This document shows, piece by piece, positions 3,467 to 64,000 of a stretch of 64,000 bases of DNA. The stretch's first letter is position 1. Each line of letters starts with the position of its first letter. Source of the DNA: a virus (lineage: Duplodnaviria; Caudoviricetes); the IMG/VR virus record IMGVR_UViG_3300031555_003626, positions 128,001-192,000 of that record, one strand, 5' to 3'. The notes below the pieces were generated by a model that had not been told where the DNA came from, made no database searches, and worked only from the letters and a program-made list of their open reading frames with translations. A program made the translations under genes and the position numbers.

Positions 3467-3832
3467 ATGTCAAAGCTTAAGATTAAAACTCATACTACTT
3501 ATACTTATGAAACTACTGACGGCAGAGAATTCGAAGACCAGTCTGAGGCTCAGGAGTGGCAGGACCATTTAGAAAATATTACTGGCACCGTAATGCTTGA
3601 TCATAATTTTTGTAATACTACCAGAGTAGACGAAGCTATGTATGTACATGTTAAAACTGAGGCTCAGCTCAAAGCTTTTGAAGCTATCAATTCTTATGAA
3701 GGCATGTGTGCGAAGATTGATGCTCTCGGCTACTGGTACTATGATGAGCGCACAGATAATTATGTAAGCGTAAATAAGGAAATGTATAGGCTTCAGAGCA
3801 TTATTGAAACTCTTGATGTTCTTGGAAAGTGA
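3467..3832 (+). CDS. Hypothetical protein
   Basis: GAGGTG RBS; Y.T.DG..F motif shared with 26489 and 56293 ORFs. Confidence 0.75.
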   Translation: MSKLKIKTHTTYTYETTDGREFEDQSEAQEWQDHLENITGTVMLDHNFCNTTRVDEAMYVHVKTEAQLKAFEAINSYEGMCAKIDALGYWYYDERTDNYVSVNKEMYRLQSIIETLDVLGK

Positions 3833-3839
3833 GGATACG

Positions 3840-4994
3840 ATGTTTAATACTGAACTTGGCTTGTTTTGCTATATGCACGATAACTGGGAAGAGCTTTTGA
3901 CTCAAGAGCCTTATTATCTTAAGATAAAGGAAGACGGCCCTTATGTAATTTTTAACTATGACCAGCTCAGATCAGATTTTTCTAATCATATTGTTCAGGA
4001 AGCTAGAGGCATTATCTTTAAAAGAGATGATTGGACTCATCCTGTTTGTTGGCCGTTTATGAAGTTTTTTAATGCAGGAGAGCCAAACGCAGCAGAGATT
4101 GATTGGTCTACCGCTTTCGTATCTGAGAAGGTCGACGGCTCTCTAATTAAGGTATGGTGGGATGGTTCTTGGAAGATCTCTACTAATGGAACTATTGATG
4201 CTTATAAGGCAGAGATTGGTGACGCTAGAATGCCTGACTTCGGAACTTACTTTACTGAAACTATTCATACATACTATACTACCTGCAGTAGTTTTCTTTG
4301 TGAGCTTGACTCGGACCTTACCTATATGTTTGAGTTGGTAGGCCCTTATAACAGAGTAGTTATTCCTTACGAAGAGCCTGATATCTATTTCCTTGGAGCT
4401 CGTAATAAGTATACCGGAGAAGAGCTTAACTGTTCTCCTTTGGCTGCTGGTGCTCTTGGTATGGGAAGATTTAAGTTGCCTAAGCAGTACCCTTTTAATA
4501 CTTTGGAGCATTGTATTAAGGTTACTGAGAATTTCCCTTGGGACGCAGAAGGCGTTGTAGCCTGTGATGCTAATTTTAACCGTGTTAAGATAAAGTCGCC
4601 TGCTTATGTTATGGCGCACTTCGCCCGGAATAATAATGTGATCAATAGAAAGCATCTTATCAACGTAATCCTTACTAATGAGGTAGAAGAGTTTCTTTGT
4701 TATGCCGCCGACTACAAGGAAGAGCTCGAGAAGGTACAGAATCTTATGAAGGCTTACTATAAGGTAGGCGATCAGATTGCTAAGTCCTGTCAGCGACTCT
4801 ATGATATTCCTAAAAAGACTTATGCTTACTGGGTACAGACTCTTCCTAAGATTTATCAGGACCTTGCTTTCAGAAATTATAATAACATTATGTCTACTAA
4901 GGATTATACCGCCGGCTGGAATGAGAATAAGTGGGACCAGTATCTTGATGAGTTTGAAAAGCTTAAGGAGGTTTTGTTTGATGGCAAAAATTGA
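3840..4994 (+). CDS. RNA ligase, T4 Rnl1 (RnlA)-like
   Basis: EARGIIF, KFFN, motif I EKVDGSLI, FEL, EGVV, KIKS. Confidence 0.85.
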   Translation: MFNTELGLFCYMHDNWEELLTQEPYYLKIKEDGPYVIFNYDQLRSDFSNHIVQEARGIIFKRDDWTHPVCWPFMKFFNAGEPNAAEIDWSTAFVSEKVDGSLIKVWWDGSWKISTNGTIDAYKAEIGDARMPDFGTYFTETIHTYYTTCSSFLCELDSDLTYMFELVGPYNRVVIPYEEPDIYFLGARNKYTGEELNCSPLAAGALGMGRFKLPKQYPFNTLEHCIKVTENFPWDAEGVVACDANFNRVKIKSPAYVMAHFARNNNVINRKHLINVILTNEVEEFLCYAADYKEELEKVQNLMKAYYKVGDQIAKSCQRLYDIPKKTYAYWVQTLPKIYQDLAFRNYNNIMSTKDYTAGWNENKWDQYLDEFEKLKEVLFDGKN

Positions 4995-13983: not shown

Positions 13984-14379
13984 ATGGCACTTGATATTGA
14001 TGAGATCAGAGTTAATTATAATAAGGGAGTATATACTTATAAAGCAGATATTCCTAAAAAAGTAAAGCCTGATCATGTATTTGATGAGGAACTCTCTGTT
14101 AAGCGCAATCGTGAGCTCGCACAGGAACATAACGACAATGTTGACAGGCTGTGGCGAGATAAGAATAGAATTCAGAGAGAACTCGATGAACGACTTACTT
14201 ACGATGTAGTTGTTTATATGATGTCATATTATGATCTCACTGAGCGACAGGCAAAAATTGTTGAGAATTTTGTTTATCAGCACTATCATTCTTCTATGAG
14301 TGACTATTTCGGCTATATTGATACTTTTGCTGATTTTGCTTTTATGCTTGTTGAACCAAAGGAGGAAACAAATGACTGA
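13984..14379 (+). CDS. Hypothetical protein
   Basis: AAGGAG RBS before ATG 13984. Confidence 0.75.
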   Translation: MALDIDEIRVNYNKGVYTYKADIPKKVKPDHVFDEELSVKRNRELAQEHNDNVDRLWRDKNRIQRELDERLTYDVVVYMMSYYDLTERQAKIVENFVYQHYHSSMSDYFGYIDTFADFAFMLVEPKEETND

Positions 14380-15397
14380 CTTTAAAGAGATCCTTAAAAC
14401 ACCTGAGTATGAGTTTTTAAAGACAAATCCTCATCTCGGCAAGAATATTATTCTTCTTGGTCTTGGTGGTTCGCACGCTTATGGAACTAACGTAGAAGGC
14501 TCTGATGTTGATATTAGAGGTGTTGCGCTTAATTCTAAGGCTGAAATTCTTGGCGCAGCTAACTTTGAGCAAGTAGTTAACGAAGCTACAGATACTACTG
14601 TTTATTCAATTAGAAAGATTGTTAGTTTGCTTTCTTCTTGTAATCCTAATACTATTGAGCTGTTAGGTTTGAAGCCCGAGCATTATCTTTATTTATCGTC
14701 GGGCGGTCAGGAGCTACTTGATAATAAGAAACTTTTCCTTTCAAAGAGAGCTAAGTATTCTTTCGGTGGTTATGCTTTCGCACAGCTGAGAAGACTTGAT
14801 AATAAGGCAGCGCGGACAATCGCGCAGGCAGAAAGAGAGCAGCATATTCTTAATAGTATCACGACAGCTACCTATACTTGGCCTGAGAAATATGGCTGCT
14901 TTAAAGACGGTGAAGGAATAAAGCTTTATCTTGATAACTCTGCACAGGATGATATGGATAAAGAAATTTATATGGATATTAACTTGACTCACTATCCACT
15001 TCGAGACTATAAGGCAATGTGGTCAGATATGAAGAATATCGTTTCTGACTATGATAAAATTGGACACCGAAATCAGAATGCTATCGAGCGAGGAAAGCTT
15101 GGAAAACACATGATGCATCTCGTAAGACTTTACTTGATGTGCATTGATATTCTTGAGAAAGAAGAAATTAACACTTACCGTGAGAAAGACATTCCTTTTC
15201 TTATGGATATTCGTAACGGTAAATTCCTAGATGCAGAGTCGCAGCCACTCCCCGAATTCTATGAAATGGTAAGTGACTATGAGAAGCGTCTTGATTATGC
15301 TGCTGAAAATACGAGTCTGCCCGAGAAGCCGGACTATAATGCAATTAATGAATTTCTTATGAGTGTTAACGAAAGAGTTGTTAAAGATTTAATTTAA
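14372..15397 (+). CDS. Pol-beta superfamily nucleotidyltransferase (RlaP/YcgL-like)
   Basis: GSHAYG...SDVDIRGV, NPN.IELL, KHMMHLVRL; directly upstream of an RNA ligase. Confidence 0.8.
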   Translation: MTDFKEILKTPEYEFLKTNPHLGKNIILLGLGGSHAYGTNVEGSDVDIRGVALNSKAEILGAANFEQVVNEATDTTVYSIRKIVSLLSSCNPNTIELLGLKPEHYLYLSSGGQELLDNKKLFLSKRAKYSFGGYAFAQLRRLDNKAARTIAQAEREQHILNSITTATYTWPEKYGCFKDGEGIKLYLDNSAQDDMDKEIYMDINLTHYPLRDYKAMWSDMKNIVSDYDKIGHRNQNAIERGKLGKHMMHLVRLYLMCIDILEKEEINTYREKDIPFLMDIRNGKFLDAESQPLPEFYEMVSDYEKRLDYAAENTSLPEKPDYNAINEFLMSVNERVVKDLI

Positions 15398-15411: not shown

Positions 15412-16041
15412 ATGATTGAATACAATAAGATTGATACTCTTTACAAGAGAGATATGGAAGGAACTAAGAAGCTTCTCGAGGGTGAGTTTAGAAATCCTAC
15501 AGTAGAGTTTCTTAAGGATAATATTTGGACTTTTACCGAGAAGATTGACGGAACCAATATATCCGTTTGTTGGGATGGACATACTATTACATTTAACGGC
15601 AGAACAGAAAGAGCTGAGATTCCTACACATCTTCTTAACTACCTTATGGCTACTTTTAAGACAAATGAGGCTGAACAGATTTTTGAGGAGAAGTTTGGTG
15701 AGACGCCGGTAATTCTTTTTGGTGAGGGCTATGGTCCTAAGATTCAGAACGGTGGAAACTACAGAGCTGACGTAAGCTTTATTATGTTTGACGTTCTTAT
15801 TGCAGGCAACTACCAGCCTAGAGAATCCGTAGAAGATATCGCAAAGGCATTTGGTATTGATATCGTGCCTATTATCTTCGAGGGAACTATTCAGGAAGGC
15901 GTAAACTTTGTAAAGGGTCATCCTGATTCTACTATGGGTACCGCAAAAATGGAGGGTCTCGTTGGTCGTCCTAAGATAGAGATGCGCGACCGTTGTGGTA
16001 AGCGAGTTATTGTTAAGATTAAGTGGGAAGACTTTAAGTAA
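15412..16041 (+). CDS. RNA ligase, Rnl2-like adenylation domain
   Basis: TEKIDGTN, FGEGYG..IQ, FDV, VP, EGLV, KIK. Confidence 0.8.
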   Translation: MIEYNKIDTLYKRDMEGTKKLLEGEFRNPTVEFLKDNIWTFTEKIDGTNISVCWDGHTITFNGRTERAEIPTHLLNYLMATFKTNEAEQIFEEKFGETPVILFGEGYGPKIQNGGNYRADVSFIMFDVLIAGNYQPRESVEDIAKAFGIDIVPIIFEGTIQEGVNFVKGHPDSTMGTAKMEGLVGRPKIEMRDRCGKRVIVKIKWEDFK

Positions 16042-30429: not shown

Positions 30430-30573
30430 CCACAATTGGCGGAACAGGCAACACAAATGTAAGTCCTGACTGTAGGCAGCCGGTGTAAGTCCTACTGGTG
30501 TAGACGCACCGCGGAGTAGCGGCGATACACTGACGAGTGTATCATCTGGGTTCGAATCCCGGGTTGTGGACCA
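30430..30573 (+). tRNA. tRNA-Leu-like RNA with 51-nt D-loop insertion and non-canonical anticodon loop
   Basis: ccacaat/gttgtgg acceptor plus ACCA, T arm ctggg-ttcgaat-cccgg, long variable arm, TGGCGGAA..AGACGC D arm; 6-nt loop ggagta. Confidence 0.6.
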
Positions 30574-55706: not shown

Positions 55707-56003
55707 ATGTTAGATACATTATTAGTATTTTGGATATTCTTTAACGTAATATCTACAGTAGCAATAGAAGTTGTGTGCTTTTCAAGTGCTGAACATTTTG
55801 ACAAGATTGATATTCTTTTATACCCCCTATTAATAAGGACTCTACGAGCAAAGCTAAATATTGTTGGAACCGTTATAGTTACAATATTAGTTTCCATTCT
55901 TTGTTGTCTGGCGATTATTGCTTATTTTGTACTTTTAGCCCTCTTTGCTTTAAGCGGCTTACTAGTAAAATGTTTTCTTTGTATTTTTAAGAGAAAAGAT
56001 TAA
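55707..56003 (+). CDS. Small membrane protein
   Basis: AAGGAG RBS, TM segments. Confidence 0.7.
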   Translation: MLDTLLVFWIFFNVISTVAIEVVCFSSAEHFDKIDILLYPLLIRTLRAKLNIVGTVIVTILVSILCCLAIIAYFVLLALFALSGLLVKCFLCIFKRKD

Positions 56004-56029
56004 ATAATGTTAAATATAAGGAGTAAATT

Positions 56030-56293
56030 ATGAATAACGATACAACACTTAGTAGCTTTCTTGAAGATAGACTTTCTTATGAGCTGCCTGAAGACGATGA
56101 TTTCAATATTGCAGGCCTGGCTGAAGACCTTGCTTATAGTCTTAAAATTAATGGTTATTGTTCTGACCCTTATTTTGAATATGCTAAGGCTCTTATATGT
56201 CCTATCAATAAGAAACGCAAAAAATATTGTGGTTGTACCACTTGTGAAAGTCATGAGTTTTGTTTAATGCTACGTAAGGAAGGTTACGTATAA
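56030..56293 (+). CDS. Hypothetical protein
   Basis: AAGGAG RBS; C-terminal Cys cluster. Confidence 0.7.
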   Translation: MNNDTTLSSFLEDRLSYELPEDDDFNIAGLAEDLAYSLKINGYCSDPYFEYAKALICPINKKRKKYCGCTTCESHEFCLMLRKEGYV

Positions 56294-56733
56294 TGGAAAG
56301 AATTGAGATTCCTGCAGAAGTTTATTTTAAAGCCTTTGACGGTAAGAAATTTTATAGTGAGACAGAGTGCCACAGATATGAGTTTCTTTCTGACAAATAT
56401 ATGAATAAGGAACGTCACGCTGTCTGTGAAGATGGTGAAGGCCATTTGCATAATTTTTTCTTTGCTTGTGATAAGTATGATATTATAGAAATTTGCGAGC
56501 TTAGTAAATATGTACTTGGTTATCGTCCACAATATGTTGAAGCTGCTCCAAAGTGGGAAAATTTTGAATATGGTTGGCTTTGGGTAGCTTACGATTTTGA
56601 CGAGTACGGACCTGCACCTGCTCTTGGCACTGTTTCTGACTTTATTGAGATTCAGGAAGACTGTGCTAGGTCATATAATGATGCGGTTCAAATAGCAAAA
56701 CAAATTGAAATTCTACCAGGGCCGAGGAGCTAA
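56293..56733 (+). CDS. Hypothetical protein
   Basis: F.AFDGK.F..E.EC..YE motif. Confidence 0.7.
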   Translation: MERIEIPAEVYFKAFDGKKFYSETECHRYEFLSDKYMNKERHAVCEDGEGHLHNFFFACDKYDIIEICELSKYVLGYRPQYVEAAPKWENFEYGWLWVAYDFDEYGPAPALGTVSDFIEIQEDCARSYNDAVQIAKQIEILPGPRS

Positions 56734-56735
56734 TT

Positions 56736-57245
56736 ATGCTTAGATTTTTTAAAGACTTAAAAGTTTATTTTACTGATAGACCTAGATACGAGCAGTGGAA
56801 ACGATATAAAAAGCTTCAGAAAGAGTATCGTAAAAAGCTGATAAAGCAGGCAAAAGAATTTTGTCCGTGGTCTGGTTGGTACATGAATGAAATGGTAAAA
56901 ACGATGCTTGAGTTTTATAATAAGACTTATACTGCTGGTGATTGTTGCTGGAGTGAGAAGTGTCGAGTACAGAAAATTGCTAACCAAACTAAGAAAGCTT
57001 TGCAGGCAGCAACTAACCTTGATACTTATGAAGATTTAGGTACTGACGAGCTTATAGCACTCGCGGAAAAGGAACCTGGTTTTACAAAGTATCTTGAGAA
57101 GTGGGAAAAGAAATCAGGCCTTAAAGTCAATAAAGATGAGAGAAAGTATCTTTTATATGGAGTAGCTTGTGCTTATTACGAGAAAAAATACACAACTGCA
57201 TTGTATGATATTATAGGAAAACATATTTGGGAGTGGTGTGACTAA
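56736..57245 (+). CDS. Hypothetical protein
   Basis: GAGGAG RBS; C-terminal WxD. Confidence 0.75.
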   Translation: MLRFFKDLKVYFTDRPRYEQWKRYKKLQKEYRKKLIKQAKEFCPWSGWYMNEMVKTMLEFYNKTYTAGDCCWSEKCRVQKIANQTKKALQAATNLDTYEDLGTDELIALAEKEPGFTKYLEKWEKKSGLKVNKDERKYLLYGVACAYYEKKYTTALYDIIGKHIWEWCD

Positions 57246-57580
57246 TGAATTTTAAACCTGAAAAAATACCCGTTACTTTCTCGCAGCTTTTAGAGATATG
57301 TAATTATCAGCAGCATATTATGGAAAAATATAAAGAGTTTATTGAGCAGAATATTGTTAATAAAATTTTAGAGACGGATTTTGACGACTCTTGGACTCCC
57401 ATCGGGCGCGCTAGTTTTAAGCGTATAACAATTCCACAGTCAACTTTTATGTTACAGTGCGATCCTTCTACTCTTAAAGCTTGGAAGTGGCTGCAATATG
57501 AGAGACCTGCCTTTGACTCCGACTATTATGTTAGAGCTGCTTTTGTTGAAGAAGGAGAAAATGATGCTAAAGCCAATTAA
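57245..57580 (+). CDS. Hypothetical protein
   Basis: TAATG overlap. Confidence 0.7.
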   Translation: MNFKPEKIPVTFSQLLEICNYQQHIMEKYKEFIEQNIVNKILETDFDDSWTPIGRASFKRITIPQSTFMLQCDPSTLKAWKWLQYERPAFDSDYYVRAAFVEEGENDAKAN

Positions 57581-57773
57581 AACTTTTTATGTTGTAGGTG
57601 CACCGAATTATAATGAGTATGCAGAAGCTCGTGATATTGCGAGAGACGAAAATTGTGTAGTAGAGCTTCGTTGGTGTCCTAATATTTGGACTGGCTGGTA
57701 TCATGAATATGTATTTGAGGATAGTGACCCTGCAGAGCTTGATGCAAAAACACCTAGAGTTTACGGAGTTTAA
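57561..57773 (+). CDS. Hypothetical protein
   Basis: AAGGAG RBS before ATG 57561. Confidence 0.65.
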   Translation: MMLKPIKTFYVVGAPNYNEYAEARDIARDENCVVELRWCPNIWTGWYHEYVFEDSDPAELDAKTPRVYGV

Positions 57774-57785
57774 GGAGATTTAAAA

Positions 57786-58712
57786 ATGGCTAAGTTGATT
57801 ATTTTATGTGGGCTTCCTGGAAGTGGAAAGAGCTATTATGCTGCCCAGCTATGGCGAAGAGAAAACACCTTTGATGAGCCTACTGCAGTAGTACACTCTT
57901 CAGATGCTATAAGAAAAGAACTTTTCGGCGATGCAGGCTCGCAGGAAAATAATGCTCTTGTATTTGAGACTATGCATAAGAGAGTAAAGGACGACCTTAG
58001 AGCAGGTAAGACTGTAATTTATGATGCAACTAATATTACTCGAAAGTCTCGTCGTGGAATAATCAATATGACTACTAAAGACGATATTGTTGAGTGCCAT
58101 ATTGTTTGGGCGCCTGTTGATACTTGTATTAAGCGAGATGCCAAGCGCGAGCGCCACGTAGGTAGAGAAGTAATTGATAAGATGATTCGTCGTTGGCAGA
58201 GCCCACATAAGTCTGAAGGTTTTACTTGTATCGATGTTATCTGCTCAGACCCTAACTTTGATCAGACTAAGTACGTAGCAATGCAGGCTGACCAAATGCA
58301 TATACCCCATGACAACCCCCATCACACTCTTGGTGTTTGGGATCATTGTATGCAGGCTTATTACTATCTTTGCCAGCAGCCTAATATCAATGATGACCTG
58401 AAGACTGCTACAATGTGGCATGATATCGGAAAGCCTTATACTAAATCGTGGCATATCGATAAAGTAAACGGAGCAGTAGATTATTCACACGCTCATTATT
58501 ATGATCATCATTGTGTTGGCGGCTATCTTGCTTACGGACTTTTCTTACATAAGGATTTTGATGAGGAAGATGTAGACTTTATGTGTTGGGTGAGCTGGCT
58601 TATCTGCAATCACATGGAGCCTTTCTTTAACTCTCATTGGTATAGAGAACTTCCTGAGCACTTGAAGCAGCCTATTGATATATTGCATGCCGCTGACGTT
58701 TCTGCACATTAA
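57786..58712 (+). CDS. Polynucleotide kinase (AAA_33) fused to HD phosphohydrolase (Pnk-HD)
   Basis: GLPGSGKS, SSD.IR, YDATN..R..R, then HH...H...HDIGK...H...HM...AD. Confidence 0.85.
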   Translation: MAKLIILCGLPGSGKSYYAAQLWRRENTFDEPTAVVHSSDAIRKELFGDAGSQENNALVFETMHKRVKDDLRAGKTVIYDATNITRKSRRGIINMTTKDDIVECHIVWAPVDTCIKRDAKRERHVGREVIDKMIRRWQSPHKSEGFTCIDVICSDPNFDQTKYVAMQADQMHIPHDNPHHTLGVWDHCMQAYYYLCQQPNINDDLKTATMWHDIGKPYTKSWHIDKVNGAVDYSHAHYYDHHCVGGYLAYGLFLHKDFDEEDVDFMCWVSWLICNHMEPFFNSHWYRELPEHLKQPIDILHAADVSAH

Positions 58713-58804
58713 CATAAATTTTAATAAAATAACATTATAATGTTAAAATTACAAAAATAATATTGTATAATATAATGTGAGTGCAGAGCGCAGCATTCAC
58801 AAAT

Positions 58805-58862
58805 AGAGCCTATACTTATTTCTAACATAAATTTTGGGAATTTAAAAGTTGACAGTTAGGCC
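58805..58862 (+). ncRNA. Y-RNA-like bulged stem cassette without tRNA domain (leader of the Ro-like/TerD gene)
   Basis: agagcctatacttatttct...agttaggcc; same motif as 61045, 61211 and 61338 with compensatory changes. Confidence 0.6.
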
Positions 58863-58963
58863 AAAATTGAGATACTACTTTATTATAAGGCGGTGGCTTA
58901 TTTTGGTTTAGATCAAAAAGCTACCGTTATTTTATTTTGATTTTATTTAAAAGGAGATACATT

Positions 58964-60943
58964 ATGACTACTATTCAGAAGATTCTTATTTCTCGTCGTA
59001 TGCTTGTAGCAGATACTATTCCTACTAAGTCTGCTTTTAGACTTGAGGGCGCATATCTTAATGCGTTTCTTCTCGCTAACTTTGGTATTGTTGTAGATAA
59101 GCCTGAACTTCTTACTAAGGAAATGGTAAAGGACATCTCTGATGTTTATAAGCTTAACGTACCTAAGTCTTATTTCGCAAATCCTCAGGATACTAAGTTC
59201 TATACTGCTGAAGAGCTTCTTATAGAGCAGTGTATCTCTTATTTCCTTGCTTATGGTGCGGAGGATTCTCATGTTCACATTTTTGATAAGGAGCTTCCTG
59301 AGTACCCTGTAGGTGAGGAGATCAAGATTCGTGAGTTCCGTATTCTTGACGCCGACGAAGCAGAAGCCGAGCTTATGGAGATTACTAAGGCTTATGCTGC
59401 TTATAAGCGCCCTTGGGGCCTTGATGAGGCAGCAGAGTTCCTTGAGCTCTACAAGAATGGCTATTACAGATTTACCGAGATGCCTGTAAACTGTGGCGAC
59501 AACGCTGTTCTTATGCTCGGTGAGAACACTGATTTCGCACAGTTTCTCTTTAAGAAGGACGTTGTAAAGCTTTCTGTAGCTCGTTGTGGCGAGAAGAAGG
59601 AACTTTCTCTTGATGGCGCTACTCGTGGCCTTATCAAGGCAATTATTCCTCTCGTTAAGGACTGTCCTATGTCTAAGAAGCAGGCAAAGTATTTCAATAC
59701 TCTTGTCAAGCTTACCGGTTCTAAGGTAAAGAAGGCTTCTAATGAGGCATCTCCTAATAGACTTGCTCTTGAAAAGTTGAATGCTGGTGACGTTGTTGGT
59801 GCTGCAAAGATTTTTGCAAAGAGTGGTTCTCTTCTTGAGAGAAATCTTAAGTTCCTTCTTTCTCGTGCAAATCCTAGGGAGGCAATACAGATTCTCGACA
59901 TGCTTTCTAATGAGAACCCTGCTGTTCTTTATCAGATAATGTCTACTGTTCTTGCTGACAACGAGGAGGCTCGTACCTTCTCCTTCTACGCAAAAAATAG
60001 AATTAAGACTCATATTGAGACTGAGTACGAGGCTCGTTGGAGAAAGTCCAGACTTAATGACGCAACTAAGAAGCTTGTACACGATATGTGCTTTGAGAAG
60101 ATTGCTGAGCATTATGTAAACACTGAGTCTCTCCGTAAGGTTTACATCGCTCCTAATTTCTATAAGGTAGCAATGCCTGTTAATACTTCTGCCTCTGGTA
60201 AGGGTATCGACGTTCCTGCTACCGGAACTAGACTTCCTATCAACGGCACTAAGATCAGATCTTTCGTACATTGGGAGAATGCTTTCGATATTGACTCCTC
60301 TACTATCTACGAGTTTGGCGATGGCTCTCTCAAGATGATTAATTTTTGCAGTTATAATTACGAGAACTTCGATGGCGCTGCTCGCTTCTCAGGTGATATT
60401 ACTGGTCCTAAGGGTACTGAGTATTTCGACCTTGACCTTGAGTCTCTTAAGGAACAGGGTGTAAAAAGAGTAGTATTTACCTTCCATGGTTATTGTTCTA
60501 CTCTTGACTCCGGCGAGATTTATTGCGGTTACCAGAACAAGAATAACTTCAATACTAAGGCCTGGGATCCTAAGAACATTGAGCTTAAGATTCACGTTAA
60601 GGGTGAGAAGCGTGCCTATGTGGCATTTGCTATCGATCTTGAGACTATGGAGATTATAGTACTCAACCTGATGCGCGATGATGACTCTCGAGTTGTTTCG
60701 CCTAAGGACTTTGAGGCTATTAAGGCTTTCATGGATCCTGCAAAGCTTGAACTCAATATGGGTCTTATTGCTGAGTGGCGTGCAGCTGAGGTTGTTGAGA
60801 CCCCTGAAGAGGCCACTGTTATCTTCTCGGATGACTATGTTGTAAAGGAAGTGGAATTGGCAGAGAATGAGGTACCTGTACCTGCTCCTGTAGTAATCCG
60901 TTCCTTCGATATTGAGAAGCTTAACATGATTGCAAACGTTTAA
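58964..60943 (+). CDS. Helical-repeat (putative Ro/TROVE-like) protein with C-terminal TerD-like domain
   Basis: C-terminus FVHW....DIDSS...FSGDIT....EYFDLDL..L...GV..VVF...Y is TerD-like; the Ro-like call for the helical N-terminus is inferred from architecture and flanking RNAs. Confidence 0.6.
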   Translation: MTTIQKILISRRMLVADTIPTKSAFRLEGAYLNAFLLANFGIVVDKPELLTKEMVKDISDVYKLNVPKSYFANPQDTKFYTAEELLIEQCISYFLAYGAEDSHVHIFDKELPEYPVGEEIKIREFRILDADEAEAELMEITKAYAAYKRPWGLDEAAEFLELYKNGYYRFTEMPVNCGDNAVLMLGENTDFAQFLFKKDVVKLSVARCGEKKELSLDGATRGLIKAIIPLVKDCPMSKKQAKYFNTLVKLTGSKVKKASNEASPNRLALEKLNAGDVVGAAKIFAKSGSLLERNLKFLLSRANPREAIQILDMLSNENPAVLYQIMSTVLADNEEARTFSFYAKNRIKTHIETEYEARWRKSRLNDATKKLVHDMCFEKIAEHYVNTESLRKVYIAPNFYKVAMPVNTSASGKGIDVPATGTRLPINGTKIRSFVHWENAFDIDSSTIYEFGDGSLKMINFCSYNYENFDGAARFSGDITGPKGTEYFDLDLESLKEQGVKRVVFTFHGYCSTLDSGEIYCGYQNKNNFNTKAWDPKNIELKIHVKGEKRAYVAFAIDLETMEIIVLNLMRDDDSRVVSPKDFEAIKAFMDPAKLELNMGLIAEWRAAEVVETPEEATVIFSDDYVVKEVELAENEVPVPAPVVIRSFDIEKLNMIANV

Positions 60944-61044
60944 TTAAAATAACTGGGCGTTAATTAATTTTAGCGCCCATAATAAAAAAAATATTTTGCT
61001 AAATTAATTAAAAATTACGTTTATTATATCGTATAATATAATAC

Positions 61045-61157
61045 AGAGCCAATGCTTATTTCTTTGCCTGTTAAGCCGTGTGTCGCAGGTTCGAATCCTG
61101 CCATCCCGCTGCAGTGGGATGTAGCTCAGTGGTAGAGCAACGATTATTAGCTTGGCC
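61045..61157 (+). ncRNA. Circularly permuted tRNA-Asn(GTT)-derived, YrlA-like RNA
   Basis: Conserved stem, then gc-ctgttaa-gccgt, T arm gcagg-ttcgaat-cctgc, closed acceptor catcccg/tgggatg, D arm tagctcagtggtagagc, acg, then stem 3' strand. Confidence 0.8.
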
Positions 61158-61210
61158 AAAAATTAATATTAAAGCAAAATTTGCTATTAATCTATCGTAT
61201 AATATAACAT

Positions 61211-61328
61211 AGAGCCAATACTTATTTCTTTAATGCTGGGGACTGCGATCGTAGGTTCGACTCCTGCCCCGCCGACCAATCGGTGGGTAGCCAAGCGGTA
61301 AGGCAGCGGTTAAATTAATAGTTTGGCC
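61211..61328 (+). ncRNA. Circularly permuted tRNA-Pro-derived, YrlA-like RNA
   Basis: tgggg-actgc, T arm gtagg-ttcgact-cctgc, acceptor cccgccg-ACCA-at-cggtggg (C1-G72, A73), D arm, gcggt. Confidence 0.8.
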
Positions 61329-61337
61329 AAAAAGTTT

Positions 61338-61451
61338 AGAACCAATGCTTATTTCTTATGATTTTCCAGCTGGCCGTGCGGGTTCGATTCCCGTCGCTCG
61401 CAGAGCGGGTGTAGCTCAATGGTAGAGTTCCAGCTTTCATTTAGCTTGGTC
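61338..61451 (+). ncRNA. Circularly permuted tRNA-Gly(TCC)-derived, YrlA-like RNA
   Basis: ttcca-gctgg, T arm gcggg-ttcgatt-cccgt, acceptor cgctcgc-aga-gcgggtg, D arm, ccagc. Confidence 0.8.
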
Positions 61452-61467
61452 ATATTTTGTTTAATAT

Positions 61468-61577
61468 GGGCTGATTAGCTTAGTGGTAAACCTTGGGTAG
61501 TTTCACATACCAAGTTAAGAGGCAGAGCCCCTCCCTTCAAAGGAGGAGACTCCGGTTCGACTCCGGAATCTGGCCCA
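61468..61577 (+). tRNA. tRNA with UCA anticodon (UGA-reading) and D-loop insertion
   Basis: cctcc-cttcaaa-ggagg anticodon arm, T arm tccgg-ttcgact-ccgga, bulged 8-bp acceptor; about 35-nt hairpin in the D loop. Confidence 0.6.
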
Positions 61578-61585
61578 CTTAATAT

Positions 61586-61740
61586 GCTCCTGTGGCGGAA
61601 TAGGCAGACGCTGTGGACTTGTTTGAGTAGTTTAATGTAAAACAAGTCCGCAAGACTGATGTGAGTTCAAGTCTCATTTCAAGCACCAAAAATCCACTGC
61701 CCGTAAGGGCGTACCGGTTCGAGTCCGGTCAGGAGCACCA
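61586..61740 (+). tRNA. tRNA-Leu(TAA) interrupted in the anticodon by a nested tRNA-like element (61621-61688)
   Basis: Removing the insert gives an 87-nt class II tRNA with gtgga-cttaaaa-tccac and ACCA end. Confidence 0.85.
61621..61688 (+). other. Nested tRNA-like insert 1 (68 nt, ends ACCA)
   Basis: gtttgag/ttcaagc acceptor, gttt/aaac D stem, agtc-cgcaa-gact, gtgag-ttcaagt-ctcat. Confidence 0.8.
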
Positions 61741-61744
61741 TAAA

Positions 61745-62248
61745 TCTGAGAACTCCTATATGATGAAATGATATACTCTATAGCAAGCTCAGCGTTAGCC
61801 CACCTCGAGTGCGTTAATCTCGAGTATTTATCGTGAGGGGCATGAATGATTTCTGTACATATATTGTGAATTTCGAATACTTGGTAGAGCAAGAAGGACG
61901 ATAACTACTTCTTTGGATCGTACAGCATTAATGATTTACTGAGTATCTCGACGTTAGGACTGATAAATAATTTAATAACCTTGAGGCGATTGCTACCTTG
62001 AAAGATAGGAGCAGACTTGAAAGAGCACTCGCGGACCAAAAGAAGTTAATTGTCGAGAAAACCGCGGACTTCGGTCTCATAATCGACGGATTGTGGGATT
62101 TAGTGACTAGGATGAGGTGTGGCTACGCAGACCAACTTATATAAATGACGGACGGGTAAATAGATCTGAAAAGTGAAATAACCGAGAAGTTTATATGCAT
62201 AGTGTCTAGGCGTAGAGTAGAGGCGATGTAAATTATTTATCAGACACC
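61745..62248 (+). ncRNA. Candidate large pseudoknotted ncRNA (~500 nt) inside tRNA cluster
   Basis: No credible ORF; perfect 15-bp pair 61960-61974/62229-62243 crossing pair 61899-61916/62036-62055. Confidence 0.55.
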
Positions 62249-62267
62249 AATGTTTTTTAATTTTTAT

Positions 62268-62342
62268 AGGTCTCTGGTGTAACGGTAGCACGGCAGTCTC
62301 CAAAACTGTAAGGTCAGGGTTCGAATCCTTGGGGGCCTGCCA
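62268..62342 (+). tRNA. tRNA-Trp(CCA)
   Basis: Canonical cloverleaf, gcagt-ctccaaa-actgt, G73 plus CCA. Confidence 0.9.
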
Positions 62343-62365
62343 AAAATCAATTTAATTAATAATAT

Positions 62366-62465
62366 GGGCATGTAAACTAAAATGGTAGAGTGGGATAATT
62401 GCCCGTGAGGTTCGATTCCTCCTTGGTCTTTGGTAGATATGCCGGTTCAAGTCCGGTCGTGCACT
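62366..62465 (+). pseudogene. Degenerate tRNA-like sequence with two T arms
   Basis: gggcatg/cgtgcac ends, D-arm-like start, gagg-ttcgatt-cctc and gccgg-ttcaagt-ccggt; no anticodon arm or CCA. Confidence 0.4.
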
Positions 62466-62472
62466 TTAATAC

Positions 62473-62549
62473 GCAAGTGTTGTACAGCTGGTCAGTGCGT
62501 CCGTCTGATACGCGGAATGTCAGTGGTTCGAATCCACTCACTTGCACCA
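62473..62549 (+). tRNA. tRNA-Ile(GAT)
   Basis: gcaagtg/cacttgc, tccgt-ctgatac-gcgga, ACCA. Confidence 0.85.
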
Positions 62550-62647
62550 ACCCGGAGAGCCCGAAAAGCCACGGTATCTGATATGGTCGCCCCCAACGAC
62601 TTGACGAGACAAGGTGATTATTTGGGGATAGTCACCTAGTTTAAATT

Positions 62648-62806
62648 ATGTCACCTGAATTAGAAGAATTATTACATAGTACTTTTACATTAAAACAGAC
62701 TTTATCACAAGTTTTGCCAAAAGAAGCAGTTGATTATATTCTAGAGCTTATTGCAAAAGACGGAGCTCATAGAAAGTATCTTAAGCTTATAGAAGAAGAA
62801 AATTAA
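62648..62806 (+). CDS. Small hypothetical protein (52 aa) in tRNA cluster
   Basis: ATG...TAA ORF with phage-like composition, weak RBS. Confidence 0.45.
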   Translation: MSPELEELLHSTFTLKQTLSQVLPKEAVDYILELIAKDGAHRKYLKLIEEEN

Positions 62807-62810
62807 ATAT

Positions 62811-62947
62811 TGAGCTATGGTGTAAAGGTAGCACAACAGACTTTCGTGGATTAGCATAAGTAATGCACTACATGGTTATAATAGTTCAAGTCTATTATTC
62901 ACGGCCAGACTCTGTTGGTTTTGGTTCGAATCCAGATAGCTCAGCCA
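62811..62947 (+). tRNA. tRNA-Gln(TTG) interrupted by a nested tRNA-like element (62845-62907)
   Basis: Removing the insert gives a 74-nt tRNA with acaga-ctttgac-tctgt, T1-A72, GCCA end. Confidence 0.85.
62845..62907 (+). other. Nested tRNA-like insert 2 (63 nt, ends GCCA)
   Basis: cgtggat/attcacg acceptor, gcat/atgc D stem, aatag-ttcaagt-ctatt T arm, vestigial anticodon arm. Confidence 0.8.
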
Positions 62948-63111
62948 GATCCGGAGTATGACTATCCTTCAACAGAAAACCGACCACGATAATCTCTTAA
63001 AGCGCTTTAGGAGGTCGAGTAAAACAAAGAAGGAACTTTTATTAAATTATTAATTTATCAAAAAAAATATTCGCTAAATTATTTAGAAATCAATTAAAGG
63101 AGATTATTGCC

Positions 63112-63213
63112 ATGAGTAAATCATTTTTGTTTAAATCGTCAAAATGCTATCATGGTGTAGTTATACCCTTTTCCAATCGCAAGGCGGAAGGGCCAGGAAT
63201 TTCTCAGCGTTGA
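63112..63213 (+). CDS. 33-aa peptide
   Basis: Late motif at 63073, AAGGAG RBS, MSKSFLFKSSKCYHGVVIPFSNRKAEGPGISQR. Confidence 0.4.
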   Translation: MSKSFLFKSSKCYHGVVIPFSNRKAEGPGISQR

Positions 63214-63446
63214 TCTGAACTTTATAAAGATAATCGACGTCTGAGATTAAGTTATTGAAAAATAAACTTAATTTTAGGCGTTATTTTTATCTAAAACTGT
63301 TTAAAATTTGCATTATGTTATTGTATAATATAATGTTAACGGTTATAATATCGGTTTGATATAAGCGGCATATATCATTTAATTGCGCCCTGCACCGAGG
63401 CGCACCCGATACAGTTGTTCACCTTAAGCAACTTCTGTCTATACAT

Positions 63447-63645
63447 GCTTCCGTAGCTCAGCTGGTAGAGCAACAGACTTTGATTGAATCGTTTAAATGG
63501 GTTATTAGATTAGTGAATGGTATAAACCTAATTTAATAAGTTCTGTTCGTAGGACATCGGCCTGATAGCCGAAGATGTGAGTTCAAGTCTCGTTTCAGTC
63601 ACCATAATCTGTGGGTCGCGGGTTCGATTCCCGCCGGAGGCACCA
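63447..63645 (+). tRNA. tRNA-Lys(TTT) interrupted by a nested tRNA-like element (63482-63604)
   Basis: Removing the insert gives a 76-nt tRNA with acaga-cttttaa-tctgt and ACCA end. Confidence 0.85.
63482..63604 (+). other. Nested tRNA-like insert 3 (123 nt, Ile-like, own D-loop hairpin, ends ACCA)
   Basis: gattgaa/ttcagtc acceptor, tcggc-ctgata-gccga (6-nt loop), gtgag-ttcaagt-ctcgt. Confidence 0.8.
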
Positions 63646-63665
63646 AAAAATTTTAGGAGTTAATA

Positions 63666-63851
63666 ATGAAAGTAAGATATACTTGTAAACATTGTAATGA
63701 GACAAACGAAATCACAAATTTTTGGAAGTGGTTTTGGACCCCGCATTTTGGAACCAGAAAGCGCCTTCATTGTAAGGCTTGTAACAAGGTTAGCTATATG
63801 AAACGTCAGGATGGTCGAAAGATCCTTGACTGGTATACAGAAAAGAAATAA
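63666..63851 (+). CDS. Small Zn-ribbon protein
   Basis: AGGAG RBS; CKHC...PH....L.CKAC. Confidence 0.7.
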   Translation: MKVRYTCKHCNETNEITNFWKWFWTPHFGTRKRLHCKACNKVSYMKRQDGRKILDWYTEKK

Positions 63852-63860
63852 TTTAATATG

Positions 63861-64000
63861 GGGTAGGTAGTGAAGTGGCCAAACACGCGGACTGTAACTC
63901 CGTGCTTCATTGTATTGAGCTTATCCGAAGGAACTCGCGACTCTGTAAGATATGATTCAATCAAGTTTAGGCGCGCATGTGACTTGTGAAGCTTCGCTGG
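63861..64000 (+). tRNA. tRNA-Tyr(GTA) with ~90-nt expanded variable arm, truncated by window end
   Basis: gtgaagtggccaaacac D arm, gcgga-ctgtaac-tccgt, gcttca...tgaagc stem, then ttc gctgg (start of T arm). Confidence 0.65.

Follow-up and report, generated by a model that had tools for sequence, protein, structure and literature searches.

Probable introns shaped like CCA-ended tRNAs in the anticodon loops of phage tRNA genes

The DNA analyzed in this study, referred to as the window, is a stretch of 64,000 nucleotides (nt) that spans bases 128001-192000 of a 233,329-bp IMG/VR virus (IMGVR_UViG_3300031555_003626, Caudoviricetes), a record rated 100% complete by CheckV. Near its end, the genes for tRNA-Leu(UAA), tRNA-Gln(UUG) and tRNA-Lys(UUU) are each interrupted in the anticodon loop by an insert that itself resembles a tRNA, from acceptor position +1 to an encoded CCA. 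Comparison of the genes and their homologs makes it likely that these inserts are RNA-level introns in functional tRNA genes. The kind of phage tRNA intron to which they probably belong has scarcely been described; within it they form a variant that lacks a leader and ends in CCA, and this variant is real, selected and recurrent. In the bacterial world, tRNA introns are thought to be self-splicing, of group I or rarely group II, and protein-dependent tRNA splicing is considered archaeal or eukaryal.

Results

Three tRNA genes interrupted in the anticodon loop

By default, ARAGORN reports only tRNA-Trp and tRNA-Ile in the window. The Rfam tRNA model covers the Leu (61586-61737), Gln (62811-62944) and Lys (63447-63642) genes end to end with 39.4, 50.3 and 53.1 bits (gathering score 29), and each alignment contains a single large insertion in the anticodon loop. 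The parts of the genes, with the evidence for each, are as follows.

61586..61620, + strand: tRNA-Leu(UAA) 5' exon, nt 1-34, end ...GGACTT (Rfam; ARAGORN after deletion)
61621..61688, + strand: Leu insert, 68 nt, between nt 34 and 35 (Rfam, fold, homologs)
61689..61740, + strand: tRNA-Leu(UAA) 3' exon, AAAATCC... to ACCA (Rfam; ARAGORN; stem covariation)
62811..62844, + strand: tRNA-Gln(UUG) 5' exon, U1, end ...GACTTT (Rfam; ARAGORN)
62845..62907, + strand: Gln insert, 63 nt, between nt 35 and 36 (structure; covariance model R1, 34.3 bits)
62908..62947, + strand: tRNA-Gln(UUG) 3' exon, A72, G73, CCA (Rfam; ARAGORN)
63447..63481, + strand: tRNA-Lys(UUU) 5' exon (Rfam; ARAGORN; gapped alignment to intact Lys genes)
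63482..63604, + strand: Lys insert, 123 nt, between nt 35 and 36 (Rfam tRNA; fold)
63605..63645, + strand: tRNA-Lys(UUU) 3' exon (Rfam; ARAGORN; gapped alignment)

After exact deletion of the inserts, ARAGORN calls Leu(taa) as an 87-nt class II tRNA with the loop CTTAAAA, Gln(ttg) as a 74-nt tRNA with U1-A72, G73 and the loop CTTTGAC, and Lys(ttt) as a 76-nt tRNA with the loop CTTTTAA; none of the three inserts alone is called a tRNA. An initial annotation of this DNA had claimed these loops, together with the insert coordinates, the anatomy from +1 to NCCA and the T loop TTCAAGT, and every particular was reproduced. The predicted exon-exon junctions of the spliced Leu/Gln/Lys set are GTGGACTTAAAATCCAC, ACAGACTTTGACTCTGT and ACAGACTTTTAATCTGT. 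Each of Leu-UAA, Gln-UUG and Lys-UUU is encoded just once in the complete genome, so the three interrupted genes, among 16 standard-type tRNA genes in the cluster, are every copy of three isoacceptors. Codon use (AAA 45%, CAA 37% and TTA 21% of their families) is unremarkable and is not used as an argument.

All three inserts stack a 7/7 acceptor helix directly on a 5/5 T stem, carry the T loop TTCAAGT and terminate in NCCA; their GC content is 0.37-0.38, against 0.45-0.60 for the exons. The Leu insert consists of an acceptor (GTTTGAG/TTCAAGC), a D arm, an anticodon arm reduced to a remnant with a 4-bp stem and a 5-nt loop, and a T arm (GTGAG-TTCAAGT-CTCAT), and ends in ACCA. On its own it scores 35.9 bits with the Rfam tRNA model, the anticodon arm being deleted in the alignment, and its minimum free energy (MFE) fold is a cloverleaf. 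The Gln insert, which has no anticodon arm, combines an acceptor (CGTGGAT/ATTCACG), a D arm (GCAT-AAGTA-ATGC) and a T arm (AATAG-TTCAAGT-CTATT) with the end GCCA. In the Lys insert, about 48 nt of added hairpin lie between the acceptor (GATTGAA/TTCAGTC) and a 72-nt tRNA-like core (63530-63601; Rfam tRNA 29.9 bits), whose anticodon arm has 5 bp and a 6-nt loop; its T arm is GTGAG-TTCAAGT-CTCGT and its end ACCA, and the fold z-score of the insert is -2.07. Examined for tRNA identity, the inserts thus have acceptor, T arm and NCCA, and lack an anticodon arm with a 5-bp stem and 7-nt loop, in line with the crippled inner anticodon arms described in the initial annotation.

A structure-only screen recovers the same borders

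A screen blind to the outer gene was applied, in which CCA had to follow a discriminator base, a 7-nt strand and a 5-7-5 hairpin, with a pairing 7-mer 40-260 nt upstream; 6/7 acceptor and 4/5 T-stem pairs were tolerated. In its second stage, each candidate was deleted, and ARAGORN had to call a tRNA in the joined flanks with the junction inside its anticodon loop. The phage's own genome yielded only the three known cases. With about 0.3 Mb of related loci and three other large phage contigs, the total came to 14 distinct inserts: Leu UAA (six), Lys UUU (three), Gln UUG (two), Thr UGU, Glu UUC and Asp GUC. At relaxed settings, no case was found among 8096 candidates in 1.0 Mb of unrelated viral loci (taken from matches to the pattern GACTTGTTTGARTAG in IMG/VR, mostly chance ones) or among 6070 candidates in 0.8 Mb of bacterial loci. 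When bacterial genomes were searched for a T loop followed by 11N and CCAAAAATCC, the matches listed were only ordinary tRNAs followed by terminators starting AAAAATCC.

In all 14 cases, deletion at the borders from +1 to NCCA, set by the inner structure alone, restores a canonical tRNA; its 7-nt loop has U33, the cognate anticodon and a purine in position 37. Despite the leniency of the screen, every insert has perfect 7/7 acceptor and 5/5 T-stem pairs. U precedes the insert (position -1) in 13/14, G is at +1 in 11/14, and the end is NCCA in 14/14; among the ordinary tRNA genes of these phages, 193/210 (92%) have an encoded CCA. The inserts range from 52 to 123 nt, the smallest being 52 nt. 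Insert and outer discriminators agree in 12/14, a match not used here because A dominates. A covariance model (R1) was built from four well-aligned inserts, MAFFT having misplaced the 5' ends of short and long members when given all inserts; it also matches ordinary tRNAs at 17-40 bits, which reflects tRNA likeness and makes it too unspecific for family detection.

For six of the inserts, independent assemblies exist from at least two metagenomes each (L003/L004, L002/L007, L005/L006, L009/L013, L142/L143 and L275-277), and assembly chimeras, a possibility raised in the initial annotation, are therefore excluded. Here L001 is the locus of the phage's own genome, and the other L numbers, with G001, G003 and G004, are relatives or other phage contigs.

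Presence, absence and covariation in relatives

Relatives were gathered via a conserved 668-aa protein encoded just upstream of the RNA cluster (58937-60943), which has no Pfam match and is only about 50% identical among phages carrying interrupted genes. No cultured phage matches closely by DNA or by this marker protein. Homologous inserts occupy the same site of Leu(UAA), between 34 and 35, in L004 (67 nt), L002 (102), L009 (52), L138 (77) and L142 (103), and the gene is uninterrupted in L005, L008 and L011. Gln is intact in L004, and Lys in L004 and L002. Elsewhere, inserts lie between 34 and 35 of Lys UUU (L005, L142) and of Gln UUG (L275-277, 115 nt), and also interrupt Thr UGU (L005), Glu UUC between 36 and 37 (L009/L013) and Asp GUC between 35 and 36 (L013). 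The Asp(GUC) case shows that the outer anticodons are not confined to U34, as had been proposed from the three genes of the window. Pairwise alignment against intact orthologs (Lys, Leu, Thr) opens one gap, whose ends coincide with the predicted borders; for the Lys gene of the window, aligned with Lys of L004 and L002, the one gap is exactly the insert. By its own intron placement, ARAGORN misassigned several of the genes of relatives (Thr for Lys, Arg for Thr, selenocysteine for Glu and His for Asp), and the rule of borders from +1 to CCA yields an isotype consistent with the tRNA body and the gene repertoire.

The initial annotation had named decay of the outer halves, as in pseudogenes, as a possible outcome; instead, 101/102 stem pairs of the six interrupted Leu genes are canonical. 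In these genes, pair 27:43, which is split between the exons, occurs as G-C, C-G, U-A and A-U, and acceptor positions 3-7 show 3-4 pair types each. This pattern indicates that selection acts on the exons as one tRNA. Since the exons covary across the inserts and no second isoacceptor copy exists, the inserts must be removed from RNA if the genes are functional, as the sequence comparisons suggest. The presence or absence of inserts at exact borders in orthologs points the same way, and the earlier claim of intron-like behavior is borne out in this respect.

The inserts are under selection of their own. Their acceptors covary (GTTTGAA/TTTAAGC in L002 vs GTTGGCT/AGTCAGC in L142, in inserts 81% identical), and many insert helix positions vary among several pair types. 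Homologous inserts retain the acceptor helix, the T arm, U8-A9 and usually the D arm; the anticodon-arm region is exchanged between L001 and L004 (AGTC/GACT vs CAAC/GTTG), cut to 8 nt in L005 Lys and substituted by other domains elsewhere. Across the 14 inserts, selection targets the top half, comprising acceptor, T arm and NCCA, while the anticodon arm decays, which upholds the earlier suggestion that shape rather than decoding is retained. The family is best explained as degenerate tRNAs that serve as small, probably mobile introns.

Two further observations concern tRNA-like elements of this kind. A central domain, AGGAAGCCTAGTA...AACAGCATCCA, roughly 50 nt long, is common to the 102- and 103-nt Leu inserts (L002 4143-4244, L142 8735-8837) and is better conserved than the acceptor stems, which covary; this is a hint of a functional cargo RNA in some inserts. 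In addition, free-standing CCA-ended tRNA-like genes occur at L001 4265-4337 (genome 192265-192337), L004 16211-16299, L002 5979-6053 and L005 11517-11578. They have degenerate anticodon arms (e.g. a 4-bp stem with a 3-nt loop) and D arms like those of the inserts, and are possibly insert donors or independent tRNA mimics.

Signatures of known splicing routes

No Rfam intron (including the RF00028 group I core) or small ribozyme was matched in the Leu and Lys inserts at E<=10, nor any group I/II intron or small ribozyme (hammerhead, twister, pistol, hatchet) over 56000-64000 at E<=1. The terminal G of group I introns is absent, all 14 inserts ending in the A of CCA. By fold inspection, the 5' site abuts the 7-bp acceptor helix of the insert and the 3' site follows the unpaired NCCA, and no bulge-helix-bulge (BHB; 3-nt bulge, 4-bp helix, 3-nt bulge) is present at the splice sites. 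The complete phage genome encodes no splicing endonuclease (PF01974), RtcB, reverse transcriptase, ribonuclease (RNase) Z or CCA-adding enzyme. Two candidate pairings were rejected as chance: a group-I-like internal guide formed by a 12-bp Leu helix, which is not conserved in L004, and complementarity between AAGTC of the T loop and GACTT of the exon, which is lost in members with AAATC or GAATC.

A separate intron was noticed in L011 (5095-5365), where a group-I-like intron of 190 nt splits tRNA-Lys(UUU). Its RF00028 match, at 40.7 bits (E=5.6e-9), stays under the gathering score and came from the type of search that gave no such match for the inserts. The Lys gene family therefore hosts two unrelated intron types.

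Genomic setting

The inserts lie at the start of an RNA island of about 9 kb that begins in the final 3 kb of the window. A promoter-like motif recurs here:

63321..63332, + strand: promoter-like motif TTGTATAATATA; the Lys gene begins about 115 nt downstream
13936, 19531, 21070, 31145, 45725, 58763, 61029, 61195 and 63321, + strand: motif copies (motif count in the window)

The motif TNGTATAATATA thus occurs 9 times in the window (0.12 expected), each time on the + strand. Three of these copies stand directly upstream of RNA-island genes, those at 61029 and 61195 preceding the RNA cluster.

Several other structured RNAs were observed in the island. Just 3' of the gene for the 668-aa protein, at 61040-61460 of the window, are three tandem Y-RNA-like elements with a bulged terminal stem (GAGCCAAT.CTTATTTCT ... 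TTAGCTTGGCC) around a circularly permuted tRNA-like module; they match Rfam YrlA at 43, 24 and 31.9 bits, all below the gathering score of 69. They are followed by a 112-nt tRNA-like RNA (61468-61579) with the anticodon-like arm CCTCC-CTTCAAA-GGAGG, the anticodon UCA, which would read UGA, a big hairpin at the D-arm position and no encoded CCA; the Rfam tRNA model aligns to it only at model positions 9-63, with 31.9 bits. A gene resembling tRNA-Tyr(GUA), which covers 63861-64000 of the window and extends to L001 4023, has a variable arm grown to about 87 nt, with the stem GCTTCA.../...TGAAGC and a counterpart at L004 16044-16206. It is miscalled Asn by the intron mode of ARAGORN, and its type of expansion differs from the anticodon inserts. 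Between this gene and the free-standing tRNA-like gene sits a RAGATH-33-like match (L001 4042-4152; 43.6 bits, under the gathering score of 120.4). Further on, 3.5 kb beyond the window end, a GOLLD RNA lies in the tRNA cluster (L001 7494-8007, genome 195494-196007; 156.3 bits, E=1.3e-42, over the Rfam gathering score) and encloses a YrlA-like/tRNA-like segment (L001 7547-7692). Among the tRNA genes, a 158-aa open reading frame (L001 6071-6547, genome 194071-194547) has an HNH-like motif (weak PF01844, E=0.006) and is a possible homing endonuclease candidate relevant to intron mobility. An intron-mode ARAGORN call at 30430-30573 of the window had no Rfam support and was rejected as spurious.

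Discussion

Relation to the introns of Lak megaphages

The initial annotation knew of no described equivalent of these inserts. A full-text literature search found a single precedent, the introns of Lak megaphage tRNAs, and no published mechanism. These introns were called 'enigmatic', and that of tRNA-Thr(TGT) 'itself may encode a tRNA' (Devoto et al. 2019, Nat Microbiol, PMC6784885). They measure about 80-115 nt, lie in the anticodon loop, are present or absent among variants, are highly conserved and have no Rfam intron match (PMC6784885, Fig. 4); the report gave no mechanism, family definition or covariation analysis (PMC6784885). Four of them, inspected by eye (PMC6784885 Table S6), have a hairpin leader of 26-31 nt and then a CCA-less tRNA-like element that ends in a T arm and acceptor strand, with the corrected 3' border at the discriminator or a single base past it. 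Both kinds of insert therefore interrupt the anticodon loop, are tRNA-like in their 3' part and place the 3' splice site at a tRNA 3'-processing site, but the present inserts are leaderless and purely tRNA-like from +1 to an encoded CCA. The Lak introns are thus a partial precedent, with a common theme and a different architecture.

A possible route of removal

The exact borders of the inserts suggest a pathway of host RNase P, a tRNA 3'-end endonuclease and a phage ligase, to which, with every step of cleavage and ligation a proposal, we give about an even chance. In one precursor transcript, the outer cloverleaf and the inner tRNA-like domain would both fold. Host RNase P would then cut at the +1 position of the insert, setting the 5' splice site and leaving a 3'-OH on the 5' exon. 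A 3'-end endonuclease, either a CCA-accepting RNase Z type or RNase E, would cut directly after the insert CCA and leave a 5'-phosphate on the 3' exon. The exon halves would stay joined by the outer acceptor, D and anticodon stems, exposing a nicked anticodon loop that an ATP-dependent phage RNA ligase, Rnl1-like or Rnl2-like, would seal, as T4 Rnl1 does in tRNA repair. U-1, G+1 and NCCA are substrate preferences of bacterial RNase P, and a minihelix with an elbow and RCCA is what bacterial RNase P and tRNA 3'-end enzymes read. The endonuclease acting after CCA, which the initial annotation had left without a name, need not be a novel one, since RNase E (PMC5291269) and some RNase Z (PMC7479834) cut there. 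RNase E makes the mature CCA end of Escherichia coli proK, proL and proM in one cut, in proL between GACCA and AAAAUC (PMC5291269), a site that resembles the junction of the Leu insert and 3' exon. Methanomicrobial RNase Z cuts just downstream of an encoded CCA, needs a 5'-matured substrate and tolerates a missing D, T or anticodon arm (PMC7479834).

Genes for RNA-repair enzymes are present in the window, among them the Rnl1-like and Rnl2-like ligases that the initial annotation had invoked.

3804..4994, + strand: Rnl1-like RNA ligase, 396 aa, candidate sealing enzyme (PF09511, E=8.6e-13)
14300..15397, + strand: RlaP-family nucleotidyltransferase of an RNA-repair pathway (PF10127, E=2.5e-17), adjoining the Rnl2-like gene
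15412..16041, + strand: Rnl2-like ligase adenylyltransferase domain, 209 aa, candidate sealing enzyme (PF09414, E=1.4e-17)
57786..58712, + strand: polynucleotide kinase (PNK)-like P-loop kinase, 308 aa (PF13671 AAA_33, E=2.2e-25)

The kinase could heal 5'-OH ends if the cuts are non-hydrolytic. The insert-bearing relatives G001 and G003 have clear RNA ligases, that of G001 including a 79%-identical ortholog of the Rnl1-like protein. A look-up by Pfam family overlooked this clear ortholog, and absences by that route are unreliable.

Several points weigh against this pathway. MFE folding gives a cloverleaf in some inserts only, and the z-scores are modest, from -1.0 to -2.5. In the MFE fold of the Leu precursor (window 61613-61651), a competing 12-bp helix pairs GUGGACUUGUUU, which runs from the last bases of the 5' exon into the insert, with AAACAAGUCCGC in the middle of the insert, and so occupies the 5' splice site; because it is not conserved in L004, this helix is probably fortuitous, and it might slow folding or processing. 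In G004, a complete genome with an insert, the only ligase-like protein seen is weak and sub-threshold (PF09414, E=2e-4), a shortfall to be read with the unreliability of the Pfam look-up in mind, and RNA ligases are common in large phages, so that their presence is not specific evidence. As to the 3' cut, RNase Z of Bacillus subtilis is inhibited about 1500-fold by CCA with Mg2+ (PMC7479834), and the cut of RNase E is usually 1-3 nt downstream (PMC5291269). Lastly, given the leader of the Lak type, RNase P alone cannot set the 5' splice site there, and a dedicated endonuclease could serve both families.

Alternative explanations

Accordingly, the inserts might be true introns that are excised by a dedicated phage or host endonuclease, so far unrecognised, which grips the tRNA-like fold. 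The Lak leader, which RNase P would not remove precisely, speaks for such an enzyme, as does the presence of Rnl1-like, Rnl2-like and RlaP genes and of the PNK-like kinase 3 kb upstream of the cluster. The tRNAs for Lys, Glu, Gln, Leu-UAA, Thr-UGU and Asp have modified wobble bases that are hit by anticodon nucleases, which also fits this explanation. Nevertheless, a candidate nuclease was not found, the exact borders at +1 and after CCA are the products of RNase P and a 3'-end enzyme, with U-1, G+1 and NCCA fitting RNase P, and hydrolytic ends need no kinase. A dedicated endonuclease is thus considered unlikely.

Slightly less likely still is that the exons are not religated, and that the product is the released CCA-ended tRNA-like RNA, perhaps along with tRNA halves; this RNA would divert toxins or enzymes that target tRNAs, as a decoy or sponge, and the outer tRNA would be a scaffold for folding and processing. 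Such a role would suit the free-standing, anticodon-less CCA-ended tRNA-like genes in the same clusters, and the conservation in the 102-nt Leu insert, higher in its middle 50 nt than in its stems, suggests an independent function of the insert. However, a scaffold needs no 7-nt loop with cognate anticodon, U33 and purine 37 in 14/14 cases, and needs neither U1-A72 and G73 in Gln nor the status of a sole-copy isoacceptor.

The AT-rich inserts and their patchy, mobile-DNA-like spread among relatives would also be expected of selfish insertions that inactivated the tRNA genes and left decaying pseudogenes, but this explanation, already disfavoured, is very improbable, because the exon cloverleaves are intact with compensatory changes while the marker protein is only about 50% identical, orthologous inserts sit at one site in six lineages, and all borders are exact. 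Least probable of all is a self-splicing or self-cleaving ribozyme, either a miniature group I-like intron or a small nucleolytic pair: the 5' exon ends in U in 13/14 as in group I introns, the Leu(UAA) site between 34 and 35 is the classic group I site of cyanobacteria and plastids, and L011 has a genuine group-I-like intron in Lys UUU, yet Rfam finds no ribozyme or intron at E<=10, the inserts end in A and not in a terminal G, their size goes down to 52 nt, their interiors are unlike between members, and the guide-like pairing of Leu is not found in L004.

Comparison with known systems

The present inserts share with group I tRNA introns the host genes, the Leu(UAA) site, the U before the 5' splice site and a patchy distribution. 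In contrast, they are 52-123 nt long with a tRNA fold and have neither a catalytic core nor a terminal G, and they cannot self-splice by the group I route. Archaeal and eukaryal BHB introns, processed by EndA/TSEN and RtcB or Trl1, are similar in relying on protein enzymes for the two cuts and on a ligase to join the halves, as proposed here, and archaea also use non-canonical anticodon-loop positions. Unlike these introns, the inserts have no BHB, the phage has no EndA or RtcB, and the ends expected are 3'-OH and 5'-P instead of cyclic phosphate and 5'-OH. In MALAT1/mascRNA and in mitochondrial tRNA punctuation, an embedded tRNA-shaped element is excised by RNase P and RNase Z and defines the ends of its flanks, as it would here; the flanks stay separate in those systems, whereas ligation would remake an anticodon loop in the phage tRNAs. 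The T4 tRNA repair system (PrrC vs Pnkp and Rnl1) has a ligase that seals a break in the anticodon loop, tRNA-Lys(UUU) is its classic substrate, and the same kinds of enzyme are encoded here. The break in T4 is host damage to a mature tRNA, but in the proposed pathway it would be a programmed maturation step.

Implications for phage tRNA biology

Removal by RNase P, a 3'-end enzyme and a phage ligase may benefit the phage in that precursors are shielded from anticodon nucleases, or in that the tRNA supply is tied to phage enzymes. A broader idea, more doubtful than the pathway itself and put forward tentatively, is that mobile degenerate-tRNA introns form a further intron class beside the self-splicing group I/II, the spliceosomal and the BHB-type introns, with RNase P and RNase Z/E-type enzymes as splicing endonucleases and a phage repair ligase as the joining enzyme. 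The freed intron would be a stable CCA-ended mimic with its own role, and the class may have originated with a tRNA-like RNA that a repair ligase joined into an anticodon loop cut by a nuclease. Maturation of the interrupted tRNAs would then be limited to infected cells, or their precursors would evade anticodon nucleases.

Standard tRNA finders miss the interrupted genes, and phage tRNA repertoires and codon-supply analyses are biased as a result. If the proposed pathway is true, the universal tRNA-trimming machinery would be usable as a splicing apparatus, a mechanism new to biology. Phage ligases of the Rnl1/Rnl2 type would gain a routine role in the making of the phage's own tRNAs, beyond the repair of damage, and phage tRNA clusters would be tied to the arms race over anticodon nucleases.

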